This document shows positions 6,885-12,961 of a DNA stretch of 64,000 nt, piece by piece. Made by a program: the position numbers and the translations under genes. The stretch is from the sequence record OL960581; one strand, 5' to 3'. The stretch is from Escherichia phage vB_EcoM_SA20RB. Each line of letters begins with the position of its first letter. The first letter of the stretch is position 1. A model generated the notes under the pieces. It saw only the letters and a list, made by a program, of their open reading frames with translations, was not told where the DNA came from and searched no databases.

Positions 6885-6914
6885 ATAATACCATAGTTTG
6901 AACTTCTTGTAAAC
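6885..6914 (-). promoter_or_regulatory. T4-type early promoter (-35 GTTTAC, -10 TATTAT, AT-rich UP element)
   Basis: Minus strand reads aaaataatttcacaaagttGTTTACaagaagttcaaactatggTATTAT. Confidence 0.55.
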
Positions 6915-6983
6915 AACTTTGTGAAATTATTTTAGGGAACGATAAGAAGGGAACGATAGCTTAGAATGGTAATATACAGAATG

Positions 6984-7009
6984 CGAGAAAGAAAGGCCCA
7001 GAGGGCCCG
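6984..7009 (-). terminator. Terminator-like hairpin GGGCC-CUCU-GGGCC plus U-rich tail, 3' of nrdH
   Basis: Stem-loop followed by TTTCTTTCT on the minus strand. Confidence 0.5.
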
Positions 7010-7011
7010 TC

Positions 7012-7320
7012 TTAGTCTTCTATGATATCTCTATCATATCCAAGTGAAATGAGAGTTTCTTTGAAGTGTTTAATGTTCTTTTGTCTAGAATCATTGATGA
7101 AAATGACTGGATAACGAATGTTAAGAGATGTGAATCCAGCGCGTTTAGCAAGAGATACAATCAGTGGACGATCATACTCAATCTTACCATTATTTGTAAG
7201 AACTTTATAGAAAGTAAAAGGAGCATTGAGCTCCTTTAGAAGTTTTGTAACTGATTGACATCCAGGACAACGACCTACTTCATCTGGAATTCCATAGACT
7301 TCAATCTTATTTTGTTTCAC
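7012..7320 (-). CDS. nrdH: NrdH-like glutaredoxin
   Basis: 102 aa with CPGC redox motif (GRCPGCQSV); sits beside nrdG/nrdD. Confidence 0.85.
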   Translation of the reverse strand: MKQNKIEVYGIPDEVGRCPGCQSVTKLLKELNAPFTFYKVLTNNGKIEYDRPLIVSLAKRAGFTSLNIRYPVIFINDSRQKNIKHFKETLISLGYDRDIIED

Positions 7321-7322
7321 AA

Positions 7323-7535
7323 CTATTCCTTACTAAGAGCAGCATTCAGCTTATTAGTAATTTTATCCAGACGCTCATTGAACTCGCTAGAAGACAGTCC
7401 TTTTTCTGGAGAAATCAAACTAATCACGAAAAATATAACAATAAAAGGAATAAGGAAAATAGCTCCAACTGCCATAAACAAAAAGAATGTTACGGTTGTA
7501 AGAAAATCAGCTAAACCTTTACGAAATTTATACAT
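7323..7535 (-). CDS. Small hydrophobic (membrane) protein
   Basis: 70 aa; long hydrophobic stretch FLTTVTFFLFMAVGAIFLIPFIVIFFVISLI. Confidence 0.5.
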   Translation of the reverse strand: MYKFRKGLADFLTTVTFFLFMAVGAIFLIPFIVIFFVISLISPEKGLSSSEFNERLDKITNKLNAALSKE

Positions 7536-7650
7536 ATTTTACCCTTAATTGATTAACCAAGCATTGATAAGCACTAAACTATATTGCGAATAAAATTCTG
7601 GACCAAAATGAAAAATCATATCATTTATAGTGTCCATAATATAATTCAAT

Positions 7651-8121
7651 TTAATCATGTTTCCACACCCCATCGGTATTTGACCAAAGTCGCTGATTAT
7701 CTGATCCTCGCCACAGCTTTTTGGTAGGAAGATTTTTCTCATACTTCCCATCAATAATAACATCAACATATTTAAGCATTTCTAGTTGTTTAATATCTTC
7801 AAATTTATATCCTGTCCACAACCAAATGCTTTTATTGGAATAAAGATTTTTTACTGTTTGAACCACAGAGTGAATAACATCTCGGTTATCAGGATAGAGA
7901 GGGTCTCCTCCAGTTATAGTTAATCCTTCTATATAATCATTATTCAAACATTCAATTAATTGTTCTAGTGTTTCACCAGTGAATGGAACACCATTTCTAG
8001 CATTCCATGTTGATTTATTATAACACCCTTCGCATTTATGCAAACAACCTGTAACGAAAAGAACTGTCCTGCATCCAGGACCATTAACAAAGCAGCATGG
8101 GTATATTCTGTCATAATTCAT
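7651..8121 (-). CDS. nrdG: Anaerobic ribonucleotide reductase activating protein (radical SAM)
   Basis: 156 aa; CxxxCxxC cluster in GCLHKCEGCYN; length matches T4 NrdG. Confidence 0.92.
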   Translation of the reverse strand: MNYDRIYPCCFVNGPGCRTVLFVTGCLHKCEGCYNKSTWNARNGVPFTGETLEQLIECLNNDYIEGLTITGGDPLYPDNRDVIHSVVQTVKNLYSNKSIWLWTGYKFEDIKQLEMLKYVDVIIDGKYEKNLPTKKLWRGSDNQRLWSNTDGVWKHD

Positions 8122-8950
8122 TTATATATTTCCAATTATAGCCTTCAACACTTTTACGTTCGCCATTTAAACATTTTAAAATATTTCCTTTGCTAGAAAT
8201 ATTAAAATATTTTGCTGCGTCTGGTATATAATTAAATGTTTTTAAAAGAACACCATCTTTATATGCGCCAAATAAATTAAGAGTATATTTTTCTCGAAGA
8301 CGCTGATGTTTCCTTTTCATAACCTCAGGATTTGCATACGCCAACCTCAATGAATTTCTATGTTTTTCTTTTACTTCAGGTTTTTGCATTGCTAACTTAG
8401 TTAGCCTGGAAATTTTATTTCTAACTTCGTCAGTTTTCATTGCATTTGACAAATTTAATAAAGTTTTATTTCTAACTTCAGGTTTTTGCATTGCTAACTT
8501 AGTTAGTTCTCTATGTCTTTTTCTAAAATCGTCATCCTTCCATATATTTTTCGATAATTTTGACATAGAGCGGTGAAATAATTCCTTTTCACTGGAATAC
8601 AATTTAAAAATTTCATCCAATTCATCCGCATTAAATCTATCGGTATTCGAGTTTATCATTCTATGAAAGGCATAACACATTTTACTATTGCTTGTTTTAG
8701 CTAAATAGTAATGAGCTAACGCATGGTCATAATATGACAAATTAACAATATTCCATTTATCTGTTTTATATTCAGGAAATATAGATTTGGGAAGCACGTG
8801 ATGTGCTTCCGTTTTTCCTTTTATTTTAGGATTATTATAATTTTTTGTTATCAAATCAACATATGACAATAGTAAATCATTATTTTCTTCAAATATTAAA
8901 GCTAATTTATCATTCACAAAATCGCAAGGATAAAATCTATCGTAATTCAT
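8111..8950 (-). CDS. mobC: HNH-family homing endonuclease-like protein (MobC-like) between nrdD and nrdG
   Basis: 279 aa; HNH-like EAHHVLPKS...NIVNLSYYDHALAH; repeated TKLAMQKPEV module; same position as T4 mobC. Confidence 0.75.
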   Translation of the reverse strand: MNYDRFYPCDFVNDKLALIFEENNDLLLSYVDLITKNYNNPKIKGKTEAHHVLPKSIFPEYKTDKWNIVNLSYYDHALAHYYLAKTSNSKMCYAFHRMINSNTDRFNADELDEIFKLYSSEKELFHRSMSKLSKNIWKDDDFRKRHRELTKLAMQKPEVRNKTLLNLSNAMKTDEVRNKISRLTKLAMQKPEVKEKHRNSLRLAYANPEVMKRKHQRLREKYTLNLFGAYKDGVLLKTFNYIPDAAKYFNISSKGNILKCLNGERKSVEGYNWKYINEL

Positions 8951-10230
8951 TGGTGTTTAACCCTATGCATGATTTCTTTATTTTTTCCGAGATTAAATCC
9001 GCGTTCATTCGGATTTCCCAAATAACCACAAGTTCTTCTTATTGTGTTCATCTTTTTAGGATCAGTTTCTCCACAAATAGAACAAACAAATCCGTTTTCA
9101 GTAGGAGTCATTTCATGTGTACTTCCACATGTAAAACATTTATCTACTGGCATGTTAACACCAAAATAATCTAAATGTTGTGCAGCATAATCCCATACAG
9201 CCTCAAGACCTTTTAAGTTATTTTTCATATCAGGAAGTTCAACATAAGAAATGTGACCACCTGTCGCAATGAAATGATATGGGGCTTCGCGAGAAATCTT
9301 TTCAAATGGAGTGATATTTTCTTCTACTGAAACATGGAAACTATTAGTGTACCAGCCTTTATCAGTAACATCTTTTACACTTCCATATTTTTCAGTATCA
9401 AGTTTACAGAAGCGATAACAAAGGTTTTCAGCAGGTGTAGAATACAAGCTAAAAGCAAAACCAGTTCTTTCAGTCCACTGCTTAAGACGAGCATTCATTT
9501 TAGTTAAAATTTCCTGTCCAATATCACGACCGACAAGAATATTCAATTCGTGAATACCAATGTATCCTAGGGACACTGAACTTCTACCGTTTTTAAATAA
9601 CTCAATTATGTCGTCATCAGGTTTAAGACGAACCCCGAATGCACCTTCTTGGTAAAGAATAGGAGCAACAGTAGCTTTAACTCCTTTTAAGGAACTAATT
9701 CTACACATCAATGCTTCAAAACATAAATCCATTCTCTCATTGAACAATTCGGCAAATTTCTGTTCATTGAACTGTGTTCCAATATAAGAATCTAATGCGA
9801 TACGAGGAAGATTCAGTGTTACAACACCAAGATTATTACGTCCATCAAGAATTTCATTACCAGTCGAATCTTTCCATACGCTCAAGAAACTACGGCAACC
9901 CATTGGAGAAACAGGAACAGATGAACCAGTGATAGCTCTATTGTTCTTAGCTGAAATAATATCAGGATACATCCTTTTGCTTGCACACTCTAGAGCAAGC
10001 TGCTTAATATCATAGTTCGGATCGTCTTTGTAAAGATTAACACCTTCTTCAACGAACATGACAAGTTTAGGGAAAATAGGAGTTATCCCATCACGACCAA
10101 GACCTTTGATACGATTTTTCAGAATTGCTTTCTGAATCATTCGTTCAGTCCAGTCAGTTCCCGTACCAAATGTAATTGTTACAAAAGGCGTTTGACCATT
10201 AGAGCTGAAAAGTGTATTTACTTCATCATT
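8947..10230 (-). CDS. nrdD: Anaerobic ribonucleotide reductase NrdD, exon 2 (5' boundary approximate)
   Basis: C-terminal RRTCGYLG glycyl-radical motif and CxxC...CxxC zinc site; the ORF's first ~16 codons (TTG start) are intron read-through. Confidence 0.88.
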   Translation of the reverse strand, partial: NDEVNTLFSSNGQTPFVTITFGTGTDWTERMIQKAILKNRIKGLGRDGITPIFPKLVMFVEEGVNLYKDDPNYDIKQLALECASKRMYPDIISAKNNRAITGSSVPVSPMGCRSFLSVWKDSTGNEILDGRNNLGVVTLNLPRIALDSYIGTQFNEQKFAELFNERMDLCFEALMCRISSLKGVKATVAPILYQEGAFGVRLKPDDDIIELFKNGRSSVSLGYIGIHELNILVGRDIGQEILTKMNARLKQWTERTGFAFSLYSTPAENLCYRFCKLDTEKYGSVKDVTDKGWYTNSFHVSVEENITPFEKISREAPYHFIATGGHISYVELPDMKNNLKGLEAVWDYAAQHLDYFGVNMPVDKCFTCGSTHEMTPTENGFVCSICGETDPKKMNTIRRTCGYLGNPNERGFNLGKNKEIMHRVKHQ

Positions 10231-11273
10231 ATATTCAGCATGAGTCGCAAATTCATGCCCGTTTATATGAAACAACAAAATTTGGATAGTCCATAGATAT
10301 GCAACGTTCTTTTATAGTGCTAGGATGAAAATTTAGCGCTTTAGCTGCTTCTATATAAGACGTATACTTAATACCGTCAACAACCACATATTCAGGAACT
10401 TTATGAATAGTAGTCTTAATACTCAAAACAAGAGGATGAGTTTCGACTTCACTTTCAGTGCAATTTAAATATTCCGCTGCTTTTTTAAAACTTCTAAAAG
10501 TTTTATTTTTAAGCTTTATCGATACTTGTTTTTTACTTTTTCGACTATTGATATTATTTTGCACATGTTCCTTAGATCTTCCGTTTTTAGCATAATATTC
10601 AGCTACAGAAGATTTTATATTGTTTTTATGAGATTCGGATAACACTTTACCCTTATGAGCATCTCTTAATTTTTGAATATGTTCTTCAGTATCCGGATGC
10701 TTATAAAACTTTTTACCGCCTATGGATTTATTTAAACATTTTTTGCTATAAAAATATTTACGTATGACCTCTTCTTCATGTTTTAATGCATCTTTATAAC
10801 TATCAAATGTTTTTAAAATTATCCATTTAGTAGGTGTATCAGTTTTTAAGCGTTCATTTATATACTTAGATGACGTTGTGTAAGTTTTCCAGTTTGTGGG
10901 CTTGTTTTTAATTGTTCTAAATTTTTTATAACCGATATAAATGTCGCCATTAGAAAACTTAACTAAGTATGTAAATGCGTCTTTATCTTTTATTTTAGTA
11001 CAACGTCTTTTTATCCATTTCATTGTTTCACCTCGTATTCATAAGATAATCTTATTTATACAAGATGACTGCTGCATGTCGCCATGCAGATTAGACTATA
11101 TCTTCATCTTTCGATGCCGGCCGTTTCGAATAGCATTAGCTTCTATTCTACACCGTTACATTCATCACGGTTAGTCGTTAGGCATTTAGTTCAAAAGAAC
11201 ATTTAGCACGGGATTGTCTACTAGAGAGGTTCCCCGTTTAGACCGGTTTTACATGAGCCTGAATTAAATTAAC
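10231..11273 (-). mobile_element. Group I self-splicing intron in nrdD (sunY-type), boundaries approximate
   Basis: nrdD frame broken by a stop at 11264; about 1 kb insert carrying an endonuclease ORF; ribozyme-core-like sequence CUAAACGGGGAACCUCUCUAGUAGACAAUCCCGUGCUAAAUG on the minus strand near 11150-11250. Confidence 0.8.
10253..11023 (-). CDS. Intron-encoded GIY-YIG homing endonuclease (I-TevII-like)
   Basis: 256 aa inside the nrdD intron; N-terminal FTYLVKFSNGDIYIGYKK GIY-YIG module; T4 I-TevII is 258 aa. Confidence 0.8.
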   Translation of the reverse strand: MKWIKRRCTKIKDKDAFTYLVKFSNGDIYIGYKKFRTIKNKPTNWKTYTTSSKYINERLKTDTPTKWIILKTFDSYKDALKHEEEVIRKYFYSKKCLNKSIGGKKFYKHPDTEEHIQKLRDAHKGKVLSESHKNNIKSSVAEYYAKNGRSKEHVQNNINSRKSKKQVSIKLKNKTFRSFKKAAEYLNCTESEVETHPLVLSIKTTIHKVPEYVVVDGIKYTSYIEAAKALNFHPSTIKERCISMDYPNFVVSYKRA

Positions 11274-11809
11274 TCATACGCCTGGAATGCATCGTATACG
11301 TCTTTTTCTGTTTTAGACTGGGCATAATTCAACGCATCAGCGATTTGCCATTTTTCTGCATCCTCAATATGTTTTGCATAGGTGCGTTTAACATAAGGAG
11401 AAAGTACTTTATCTACATTAGCAAAAGTCGTTCCGCCGTACTGATGTGAAGCAACCTGTGCAGTAATTTGTGCCATAATTGCAGTAGCAACGCCAATTGA
11501 TTTAGGAGTTTCAATCTGTGCATTGCCGAGCTTAAATCCGTTCTCAAGCATTCCTTTTAAATCTACTAAACAGCAATTAGTAAATGGAAGAGCAGGGGAA
11601 TAATCAATATCGTGGAAATGGATAATTCCGCTTTCATGCGCTTTCATAATAAAAGACGGGACCATATTTTTGGCAATGTGTTTAGACACAATACCAGCCA
11701 TAAGGTCCCGTTGAGTTGGAAAAACACGAGAATCTTTATTAGCATTCTCGTTCAAAAGGTCTTTATTAGTTTTATGAATCAATCCTTCAATTTCTTTTTC
11801 AATTGTCAT
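11274..11809 (-). CDS. nrdD: Anaerobic ribonucleotide reductase NrdD, exon 1 (3' boundary approximate)
   Basis: N-terminus MTIEKEIEGLIHKTNKDLLNE; ORF runs into the intron until the stop at 11264. Confidence 0.85.
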
Positions 11810-12279
11810 TTTAAACTCTTTCTAAGCTGCTTCTTAAATGAAGCTATTAATTGTGTTTTAGTGTCAGATTCATTATATTCAAATCCTCTTTGAAGCATCT
11901 CAGCCATCATTTCCTCTTTTCCTAAACGAGAAAATTCCTTTGATTTATCTCCAACGAAGTTAGGGTGAATATTATTTTGGGTGTAATCGGATTTTAAATA
12001 AGTAAGTAAATTTTCTAACCATTCAAGATAATCAACGCCTTGTCCCTTTAAGCCAGAACGATTAAATTTGTGCTTCATTTGACCTTCCGCTGCATTGCAA
12101 AGATTACAGAGCAATCCACGTACCTTTCCTGCTTTTGGTCCATTTAATTCATGGTCATGGTCAAGGTGATTAGCTTGAACATCAGGATTTAGTTCTCGTT
12201 GGCAAATTAAGCATTTACCGTTTTGTGCATTATAAAATTTCTGTTTTTCTTCTTTATATAATTTGCCAGTCAATAACAT
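11806..12279 (-). CDS. 49: Endonuclease VII (Holliday junction resolvase) gp49
   Basis: 157 aa; Cys/His-rich CLICQ...HLDHDHE...CNLCN motif; length matches T4 gp49. Confidence 0.9.
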   Translation of the reverse strand: MLLTGKLYKEEKQKFYNAQNGKCLICQRELNPDVQANHLDHDHELNGPKAGKVRGLLCNLCNAAEGQMKHKFNRSGLKGQGVDYLEWLENLLTYLKSDYTQNNIHPNFVGDKSKEFSRLGKEEMMAEMLQRGFEYNESDTKTQLIASFKKQLRKSLK

Positions 12280-12320
12280 AATAAAACCCTTACCTTAAAT
12301 AGATAAGGGTATTTATTATT

Positions 12321-12497
12321 TCAAGTATTGTAAAACATTCGATGCAATCGTTTATATTGCCGAATCATCTTTTTAGTAGGACGAGAATAAGTTCCTACAC
12401 AAGTGGTCATATTAGGGTCTGTAGAATTTCCTTTAATAAAAAGTTTCCAAACCTTACCACCATTTAACTTTTCAGTATAAATCAATTCAGTTTTCAT
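12321..12497 (-). CDS. Small hypothetical protein (about 58 aa, below the ORF-track cut-off)
   Basis: Hand translation MKTELIYTEKLNGGKVWKLF...; its ATG overlaps the upstream stop by 1 nt. Confidence 0.35.
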   Translation of the reverse strand: MKTELIYTEKLNGGKVWKLFIKGNSTDPNMTTCVGTYSRPTKKMIRQYKRLHRMFYNT

Positions 12498-12961
12498 TAA
12501 AACGCTCGGTCAGAAAAAGAAATTTGAGTTTCAAGCCATTCAATATATTCTGCTGCAGCTTGCATCAAATTTCCTTCATAACCATCATTATTTTCTTGTG
12601 CAGCTAATTTAGCTAATGCATATGAAATACGTTCACCTTGAAAAGCGGCTTTAGGTTTATGAATAGCTTGATCAACTCGTTCTACAACTTCTTCAATTTC
12701 GCCATTTTCCGCTGATTCAGTATTCCACAAGCACCAATACGTAATTGGCTTATCGTAAATGTTAATAATCTTTCCATCAGAAAGTTCAATTTCAATAATT
12801 CCAGTATCAGGTTCTATGTCGTCTTCGCATTCTTTTGCAAGTTCACGAACTTTAAAGACAGTACCTGCACTAAGTTCTGGCCAGTAATTACACAGCCCTT
12901 TATCAGCACGATTAATTCTAAACCACTTATCTACTATAATCATGTCCCATCTCCATATCAA
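12497..12961 (-). CDS. pin: Pin-like protein (putative inhibitor of host Lon protease), by synteny
   Basis: 154 aa acidic protein in the T4 pin position between 49 and nrdC. Confidence 0.55.
   Translation of the reverse strand: MIWRWDMIIVDKWFRINRADKGLCNYWPELSAGTVFKVRELAKECEDDIEPDTGIIEIELSDGKIINIYDKPITYWCLWNTESAENGEIEEVVERVDQAIHKPKAAFQGERISYALAKLAAQENNDGYEGNLMQAAAEYIEWLETQISFSDRAF

Follow-up and report, generated by a model that had tools for sequence, protein, structure and literature searches.

The subject of this work is ORF279, an open reading frame (ORF) of 279 amino acids (aa) located between nrdD and nrdG of the T4-like (Tequatrovirus) Escherichia phage vB_EcoM_SA20RB (OL960581), of which a stretch of 64,000 nucleotides (nt) was analysed; this stretch is referred to as the window, and positions are those of its whole length. 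The locus is coded on the minus strand. We consider it probable that ORF279 is a free-standing Mob-like HNH homing-endonuclease gene carried by an 829-bp cassette that sits in frame within nrdG (nt 40/41), that spreads by homing and that leaves its carriers immune to the enzyme. The native nrdG start, its ATGA overlap with nrdD included, has evidently become that of the endonuclease gene, whose first 13 residues are NrdG residues, and the 3' end of the cassette evidently supplies a second nrdG nt 1-40 that rebuilds full-length nrdG. As judged from carriers and insert-free relatives, the supplied copy represents a haplotype of its own: three adjacent base changes turn Asp10 into Cys, and the haplotype moves with the cassette across genera.

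Duplicated start of nrdG

ORF279 starts with MNYDRFYPCDFVN and the window nrdG with MNYDRIYPCCFVN, with 11 of the 13 residues identical, in agreement with an earlier reading of the sequence alone (the sequence-only reading), which had described an ORF with an NrdG-like N-terminus between nrdD and nrdG. The 5' ends of the two genes are direct repeats of each other (8082-8122 and 8911-8951; 76% identity over 41 nt) with a spacing of 829 nt. Their differing codons comprise five synonymous differences and two residue changes (F6I and D10C), and the earlier remark that the DNA of the two starts differs at synonymous positions is thus correct. A match by chance or through low complexity is excluded by the insert-free phage IME339, whose nrdG start is identical to the first 40 nt of ORF279 at 39 of 40 positions.

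In insert-free Tequatroviruses (IME339 and nine IMG/VR contigs), the nrdD stop is joined to nrdG by an ATGA overlap, the native coupling junction that in the window lies between nrdD and ORF279, and nrdG starts with ATGAATTATGATAGATTTTATCCTTGCGATTTTGTGAATGGC. The window nrdG start differs from this insert-free start at ten positions, among them F6I and GAT to TGC (D10C). Since the window nrdG start departs from the insert-free type while the ORF start matches it, the upstream start, owned by ORF279, is evidently the original one of nrdG, and that of the downstream nrdG a copy travelling with the insert. The sequence-only reading had proposed that the insertion duplicated or captured the nrdG start. 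Insert-free phages of two genera support that proposal, with its direction refined: the N-terminus of the ORF is the original and the nrdG start the incoming copy.

The insert is found as a gap of exactly 829 nt in insert-free phages (a 1701-nt query versus an 872-nt match), a size equal to the repeat spacing. The insertion point, at nrdG nt 40/41, is inside codon 14, where the likeness of the two starts ends (GTGAATG is followed by AT in ORF279 and by GC in nrdG). The endonuclease stop TGA (8111-8113) sits 8 nt inside the replacement nrdG start, and the overlap with nrdG is 11 nt.

Two features at this junction were observed in addition. A (TA)n run at the endonuclease stop and nrdG start varies in length (window 8111-8125; L041 1690-1710; L040, phage KP01, 2410-2425). 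With the run of the window, ATATATAAATG, the protein ends in KYINEL and the 11-nt overlap results, while one extra TA, found in the Tequatrovirus contig L041 and in Klebsiella phage KP01, makes the protein end in KYI with TAA abutting the ATG; this slip is seen in two lineages. Directly 3' of the insertion junction lies a palindrome, GTCCTG-GATG-CAGGAC (8066-8081, minus strand), which was flagged as a terminator-like hairpin, codes for the conserved GPGCR motif of NrdG and has a weaker form (CCCTG...CAGGG) in alleles that lack the insert. The endonuclease may recognise this palindrome as part of its target.

The same cassette in two genera

Klebsiella phages of the genus Jiaodavirus possess an 86%-identical orthologue of ORF279 ahead of nrdG, and the insert boundaries are identical in both genera. 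In the Jiaodavirus carriers (L004, L039 and L040), the endonuclease starts with MNFDRIYPSDFVN, and the 40-nt upstream copy is identical, or 1 nt off in the case of L040, to that of insert-free Jiaodavirus-type nrdG (L022 and L030). The downstream nrdG starts with MNYDRIYPCCFVN in all carriers of both genera, the rest of nrdG being lineage-specific, and the 13 travelling nrdG codons show five synonymous and no non-synonymous differences between the genera. Because the upstream copy matches the local allele and the downstream copy is constant across genera, the former is evidently local sequence and the latter travels with the endonuclease. The recipient lineage's own nt 1-40 are retained up to the junction, which suggests that the break would occur very close to the insertion point. 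Occurrence of the same cassette in two genera is an unusually clean natural experiment that separates recipient from travelling sequence base by base.

Predicted HNH core and DNA-binding modules

ORF279 is matched by PHROG 655 ("homing endonuclease") with an expect value (E) of 5.7e-37 and, at residues 23-103, by PHROG 12434 ("HNH endonuclease") with E 4.7e-15. By BLASTP, its residues 42-101 align to residues 22-79 of T4 MobC (E 1e-7), a stretch of MobC that holds an above-cutoff match to PF01844 HNH (27.6 bits versus a cutoff of 21.4). In the family alignment, H50, H51, N67, H76 and H80 are invariant, and on this HH...N...H...H motif AlphaFold predicts strands at residues 47-51 and 68-72 and a helix at residues 73-84. 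The predicted local distance difference test score (pLDDT) of this block is about 77-92 in the full-length model and 88-94 in the model of the N-terminal domain (mean pLDDT 77.7 for the full length and 87.2 for residues 1-128). The top Foldseek match of the full-length model in the PDB is I-HmuI, with a probability of 0.94 and a weak E of 0.33 over 82 columns at 17% identity. The HNH-like endonuclease of the sequence-only reading is borne out by the PHROG families, the homology to the HNH of T4 MobC and the strand-strand-helix on the motif. Searching for the HNH and NUMOD modules with profiles gave a mixed result for ORF279: PHROG recognised the HNH, Pfam recognised neither HNH nor NUMOD3, and NUMOD1 and I-HmuI_NUMOD-like matched below their cutoffs. 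Pfam matches to GerD, SRI and DnaI_N, which are sub-threshold and fall on the helical repeat, were disregarded, and an NCBIfam search of the ORF279 protein gave nothing useful. Antisense to ORF279, the plus strand carries at 8790-8810 an inverted repeat with a 9-bp stem, GGAAGCAC-GTGAT-GTGCTTCC, and a T-rich run; it spans the catalytic EAHHVLP codons and was flagged as terminator-like on the non-coding strand.

The tandem DNA-binding modules postulated earlier are present as an array longer than was noted at the time, i.e., five 17-aa units followed by a C-terminal beta-beta-helix-turn-helix (HTH). AlphaFold predicts array helices at residues 140-153, 157-170, 174-188, 191-206 and 208-222, with a 17-residue period. 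A homologue, P0007 (E 2.5e-12 to ORF279), passes the NUMOD3 cutoff (23.6 bits versus 20.4) and is above the Pfam cutoff also for NUMOD1 and I-HmuI_NUMOD; its NUMOD3 motif aligns with the 17-aa units of ORF279, which may best be called NUMOD3-like. In the C-terminal module, strands are predicted at residues 227-231 and 234-239 and helices at residues 242-248 and 254-261. Sub-threshold matches to PF22083 (I-HmuI_NUMOD-like; 21.1 bits versus a cutoff of 27, E 2.4e-4) and PF07453 (NUMOD1; 17.3 bits versus 22.8, E 5.8e-3) sit at residues 235-272, and residues 228-278 match PHROG 7140 ("intron encoded nuclease"). This module is the most conserved part of ORF279, with a ratio of non-synonymous to synonymous differences (pN/pS) of 0.04, compared with 0.16 for the HNH half.

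Within the array, a perfect 32-bp repeat, ACTTCAGGTTTTTGCATTGCTAACTTAGTTAG, is found in exactly two copies in the window (0 expected in 100 shuffles). Its existence, the 102-nt spacing, the encoded TKLAMQKPEV and the degenerate copy in the middle are as the sequence-only reading gave them, and only the coordinates in that reading, 8383-8414 and 8485-8516, were shifted by 10 nt. In the Jiaodavirus carriers, both copies hold the same two lineage-specific synonymous changes (AAGCTAGC and AAAAGCC), and phage PST has one of these two changes in one copy only, a pattern that is the apparent signature of gene conversion (concerted evolution) between units. The variant P0002/L041, from a Tequatrovirus contig of a public sequencing run, encodes 242 aa and has lost exactly 102 nt (34 aa) between the repeats. 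Given the shared synonymous changes and this deletion variant, the 32-bp repeat is, to all appearances, an actively recombining feature of the modular DNA-binding arm. Comparable recombination of repeats is reported for ICP1 homing endonucleases in the legend of figure 6 of PMC10055350.

The Cys10 haplotype of nrdG

The D10C haplotype consists of GAT to TGC at nt 28-30 together with A at nt 16, A at nt 18 and A or G at nt 24 in all carriers; C at nt 12 is found in Tequatrovirus carriers only and C at nt 21 in some carriers. All 27 insert-free T4-like nrdG loci from IMG/VR, which span 54-97% identity, have Asp10, as do about 540 insert-free phage records, and Cys10 is found in three insert-free phages only (U5, ESh24 and ERS-1). 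All 10 ORF279 carriers and all 3 segH carriers (RB3, PP01 and a metagenome contig) have Cys10, and nrdG of the mobC carrier T4 retains Asp10. The three insert-free exceptions were retrieved with a chimeric blastn query made of the native nrdD end and the Cys10 start, and they have exactly that arrangement. Scanning IMG/VR for the pattern of the Cys10 allele gave no match, and scanning metagenomes gave one contig, in which the allele follows a GIY-YIG gene that is SegH. The idea that the haplotype is private to the ORF279 cassette was dropped, given its presence after segH in RB3 and PP01 and in U5, ESh24 and ERS-1. The Cys10 haplotype is tightly, but not exclusively, tied to an endonuclease gene at this site.

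U5-type phages keep the native nrdD end and segH carriers do not; the former could be scars of a cassette lost by recombination between the two copies, whose first 11 nt are identical. The nrdD C-terminus of segH carriers is strongly diverged (VVPWNLGKMKEMVKRVKHA versus NERGFNLGKNKEIMHRVKHQ; RB3, L043 1440-1505; PP01, L044 965-1028). With this diverged nrdD end and the Cys10 start, both flanks of segH differ from the empty allele.

Near the putative site, the carrier allele differs from the target allele in 10 of 10 carriers by the split at nt 40/41 and by the changes at GAT and at nt 16, 18 and 24. We propose that the Cys10 haplotype may be a cleavage-resistant allele and that its base changes would block cleavage, which makes the three-base codon swap in nrdG a candidate resistance determinant.

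Distribution, selection and decay

ORF279 is carried by about 31 phage records, 10 of them from Klebsiella phages and about 21 from Tequatroviruses. Identity over the region is 96.5-98% to 21 Tequatrovirus records with the same ORF, and hundreds of others match the flanks only. In about 21 Tequatrovirus records, proteins with 99-100% identity are annotated as "homing endonuclease" or "mobC". In the phage collection, the nrdD-nrdG junction is occupied by T4-type mobC (at least 95% identity) in about 32 cases, by segH (at least 90%) in about 71 and by ORF279 in about 31, and is empty in about 540. ORF279 is present or absent at one precise site in otherwise collinear genomes. Among T-even phages, the paralogues closest to it are a T6 gene located elsewhere (36% identity) and T4 MobD (32%).

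Between genera, ORF279 has 0.073 non-synonymous (dN) and 0.90 synonymous (dS) substitutions per site, a ratio (omega) of about 0.08, so that purifying selection acts on the protein, which has been kept functional. The endonuclease gene of phage BF15 has a frameshift in its 5' part, caused by one inserted base (L036 1551-1705); only a truncated 228-aa ORF is annotated, and the downstream nrdG reading frame stays intact. The BF15 copy fits the usual decay stage of such genes.

Proposed mechanism and alternative explanations

We propose that the enzyme recognises the uninterrupted Asp10-type nrdG 5' end across nt 40/41 by means of a long arm of about five NUMOD3-like helices and the HTH. It would cut near nt 40/41, and double-strand-break repair from a carrier genome would copy the cassette into the recipient. 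Carriers would be immune because the site has lost its 3' half in the upstream copy and is of the Cys10 haplotype in the downstream one. The 32-bp repeat may be a by-product of the tandem modules, whose identity would be kept by gene conversion and of which recombination would delete two units.

Several points weigh against this explanation. On the protein side, Pfam has no HNH match to whole ORF279 or to either half, even at E up to 10 on the N-terminal half, and no match to NUMOD3 (PF07460) at E up to 10 on the repeat region. The between-genera dS of ORF279 is close to that of nrdG itself, so that its mobility may not be recent. The cassette is absent from IMG/VR, and outside phage records it was found in one Logan contig only. 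The Cys10 haplotype also occurs after segH or with no insert, and may be a SegH resistance or a hitch-hiking polymorphism. Finally, cleavage and homing by ORF279, its target site, the cut position and Cys10 immunity are all inferred.

One alternative leaves the cassette as described and concerns the Cys10 haplotype, which might be no immunity to ORF279 at all: it may be SegH resistance gained through recombination, or a neutral linked polymorphism. The nt 1-40 haplotype is identical in PP01, which carries segH, and in OMNI12, which carries ORF279; segH immediately adjoins the haplotype; and T4 with its mobC keeps Asp10. Against these stand the peptide of the haplotype, which is unchanged in both genera of ORF279 carriers while synonymous sites of the 13 codons differ at 5 of about 6, and the replacement of three bases at a residue that is invariant in 27 of 27 other T4-like NrdG, which makes neutrality unlikely. 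We regard this alternative as possible but somewhat unlikely, and it affects the immunity step only, not the explanation as a whole.

It is quite improbable, in our view, that ORF279 is no longer a mobile endonuclease and that its ORF is kept for read-through translation into nrdG via the 11-nt overlap, or has been recruited to another DNA-binding role. Such a state would accord with the lack of a recognisable Shine-Dalgarno sequence before the new nrdG ATG, with the old divergence between genera, with the strongest constraint being on the C-terminal DNA-binding module and with the rarity of the cassette beyond the roughly 31 phage records. However, the catalytic HH/N/H/H residues are invariant, the pN/pS of the HNH half shows more constraint than maintenance of an ORF alone needs, and in BF15 ORF279 is lost to a frameshift with nrdG still in frame. 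Active homing genes show the kind of patchy distribution that ORF279 has among near-identical Tequatroviruses, where the alternatives are segH or T4 mobC.

The opposite parse of the duplication, in which the cassette carries the upstream Asp10-type copy and landed at the nrdD/nrdG boundary of a Cys10-type phage such as U5, draws on the existence of insert-free phages with a native nrdD end and Cys10-type nrdG (U5, ESh24 and ERS-1) and on the formal ambiguity of the insert boundaries that a 40-nt repeat leaves. It predicts the reverse of what is found, since the upstream copy varies by genus and fits the local insert-free allele, while the downstream copy differs from the local Jiaodavirus allele and has an identical peptide product in the two genera; U5-type alleles are equally explained by cassette loss via the identical first 11 nt. 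We give this parse very little credence.

That the N-terminal likeness of ORF279 is coincidental or an intrinsic motif of Mob-type HNH proteins is scarcely credible: MNYxxIY starts do occur in T4 MobB (MNYLNIYNLLI), T4 MobC (MNYDRIYSNLV) and the MobC-like proteins of Cronobacter phage leB (MNYHKIYNSLI) and Klebsiella phage R2_1 (MNYKRIYDQLI), the MobC-like gene of R2_1 is not adjacent to nrdG and MNYxxIY is thus a family motif, but the match of ORF279 extends through PCDFVN and over 39 of 40 nt of the local insert-free nrdG, its Jiaodavirus start switches to the nrdG variant of its own lineage, Y3F and C9S included, its relatives P0004-P0008 do not begin with MNYDR, and the "Y..LI" helix of the Mob family corresponds to its residues 30-37, not to its N-terminus. 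The intrinsic motif is the better reading for the start of T4 MobC and is contradicted for ORF279.

Beyond the homing-cassette explanation that we favour, a more speculative extension can be envisaged, in which the nrdD/nrdG junction is contested three ways: two unrelated endonucleases, SegH and ORF279, share a circulating resistance haplotype that survives alone in U5-type scars, and translation of nrdG depends on read-through from ORF279 in an addiction-like manner. We think this extension unlikely; if true, the addiction-like arrangement would shield the selfish gene from deletion.

Organization of the locus

The features of the locus are listed in Table 1. Beyond nrdG, the gene order continues with a 55.8-like gene, nrdH and gp55. 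The nrdD gene is interrupted, at the position of I-TevII in T4, by an intervening sequence with a 256-aa GIY-YIG ORF (Pfam SegE_GIY-YIG and NUMOD1). Rfam at gathering threshold returned no RNA family and no group I intron for 7000-12500, the nrdD intron included, and a sigma-70 promoter scan gave matches at chance level.

Table 1. Features of the nrdD-nrdG locus in the window.
Feature	Position	Strand	Remarks
gp49 endonuclease VII	11806-12279	minus	
nrdD exon 1	11264-11809	minus	
GIY-YIG intron ORF resembling I-TevII	10253-11023	minus	
nrdD exon 2	8947-10278	minus	Stop TGA 8947-8949 overlaps ATG 8948-8950 as ATGA
ORF279, putative free-standing Mob-like HNH homing-endonuclease gene	8111-8950	minus	279 aa, ATG start
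Apparently native nrdG nt 1-40 (codons 1-13 and first base of codon 14), now endonuclease codons 1-13	8911-8950	minus	39/40 vs IME339
829-bp insert: endonuclease codons 14-279 and replacement nrdG nt 1-40	8082-8910	minus	
Predicted HNH (beta-beta-alpha-metal) core, residues 47-84	8699-8812	minus	EAHHV, NIVNL, YYDHALAHYYLAK
Array of five 51-nt (17-aa) NUMOD3-like helical units, residues 142-226	8273-8527	minus	
32-bp repeat, copy in unit 1	8475-8506	minus	Encodes LTKLAMQKPEV
32-bp repeat, copy in unit 3	8373-8404	minus	
Predicted C-terminal beta-beta-HTH (NUMOD1/I-HmuI-like), residues 227-275	8126-8272	minus	
Apparently cassette-borne nrdG nt 1-40, D10C haplotype	8082-8121	minus	Encodes MNYDRIYPCCFVN in 10/10 carrier loci, two genera
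nrdG, anaerobic ribonucleotide reductase activase	7651-8121	minus	156 aa, intact; Pfam Fer4_12 (E 2.4e-48) and Radical_SAM

In Jiaodavirus-type phages, an additional ORF of 77 aa lies between nrdD and nrdG (L004 2296-2529; L022 and L030 2796-3029) and overlaps each neighbour by 29 nt, and in Jiaodavirus-type carriers the endonuclease has taken up the coupling with this ORF, not with nrdD. The nrdG gene itself is a mosaic (L042 480-950, L004 3327-3797 and L002 6447-6917, compared with the window). Its central region is of type GQLFTMNTVKELASHLSKSY in T4, the segH metagenome contig and Jiaodavirus phages, and of type GVPFTGETLEQLIECLNNDY in the window and most Tequatroviruses; in the C-terminal third, T4, L042 and the window are alike and Jiaodavirus L004 is different.

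Comparison with known systems

Selfish genes that invade essential loci without killing the host have a model in the free-standing homing endonucleases of T-even phages, and ORF279 is a tidy but fairly ordinary case of settling without breaking the host gene. The nrdD/nrdG junction is already known as a hot spot, and ORF279 itself is already annotated in GenBank; a literature search found no paper on ORF279, on the way it is fused to the start of nrdG or on the haplotype shared with segH carriers. What the locus adds is that two unrelated endonucleases, SegH and ORF279, are tied to one target haplotype. Its practical value is modest: the annotation as mobC can be improved, and the locus offers a candidate HNH enzyme for long sites, whose DNA-binding repeats are modular and recombine.

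SegH, a GIY-YIG free-standing homing endonuclease, reportedly replaces mobC in RB3, LZ2, PP01 and others, a result associated with Sandegren, Nord and Sjoberg in 2005. Like ORF279, segH sits between nrdD and nrdG, its carriers have the same Cys10 nrdG 5' haplotype, and its product has NUMOD3-type helices and a C-terminal HTH. Unlike ORF279, SegH has the unrelated GIY-YIG catalytic domain, and its gene, which begins with a start codon of its own, runs up to the nrdG ATG with no duplication; segH carriers also differ from ORF279 carriers in their diverged nrdD C-terminus (...MKEMVKRVKHA).

T4 mobC and segH both occupy the nrdD-nrdG site (PMC2988022; bioRxiv 10.1101/2022.08.31.505936). T4 mobC has the same locus and orientation as ORF279, its stop overlaps the nrdG ATG by 11 nt (the protein ending in WKY..EL), and its product, too, combines an HNH motif with an HTH at the C-terminus; the record of phage PST labels ORF279 "mobC". 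However, MobC is 38% identical to ORF279 over 60 residues around the HNH only, has 210 aa instead of 279 and is without the five-unit helical array. Its N-terminus, MNYDRIYSNLV, is a Mob-family motif that is not demonstrably derived from nrdG, and T4 nrdG has Asp10. A tblastn search with T4 MobC (E up to 1e-20) found 62 records, 32 of them T4-type (at least 95% identity) and 30 distant (below 60%); ORF279 carriers are not expected among them at this threshold, the ORF279-MobC match having an E of 1e-7. On these comparisons, ORF279 is evidently not an orthologue of T4 MobC.

The MNYDRIY start of T4 MobC was considered as a second capture of an nrdG start and rejected, the MobB, leB and R2_1 genes sharing MNYxxIY. 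The Mob-type HNH proteins of T4 (L002; mobB 1886-2680 and mobC 6907-7539), L048 (1201-1842) and L049 (1201-1959) share an N-terminal MNYxxIYxxLI, which in itself is like the NrdG start MNYDRIY. T4 mobC and T4 nrdG are identical at 19 of their first 21 nt, a likeness that may have helped mobC to settle ahead of nrdG.

I-HmuI of Bacillus phage SPO1 (PDB 1u3e) resembles ORF279 in its HNH core, extended helices and C-terminal HTH, but it is an intron-encoded nickase, while ORF279 is free-standing with a longer helical array. Homing genes that split a host gene include Aeh1 MobE in nrdA and MobA with T4 genes 39/60 (PMC2988022; PMC3045599; bioRxiv 10.1101/2022.08.31.505936). As with ORF279, a Mob-type gene lies inside a conserved nucleotide-metabolism gene whose function is rescued structurally. 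With MobE and MobA, the host gene stays split in two or is rescued by translational bypassing, whereas with ORF279 the duplicated 5' end restores the whole host gene, whose displaced start is now fused translationally to the endonuclease.

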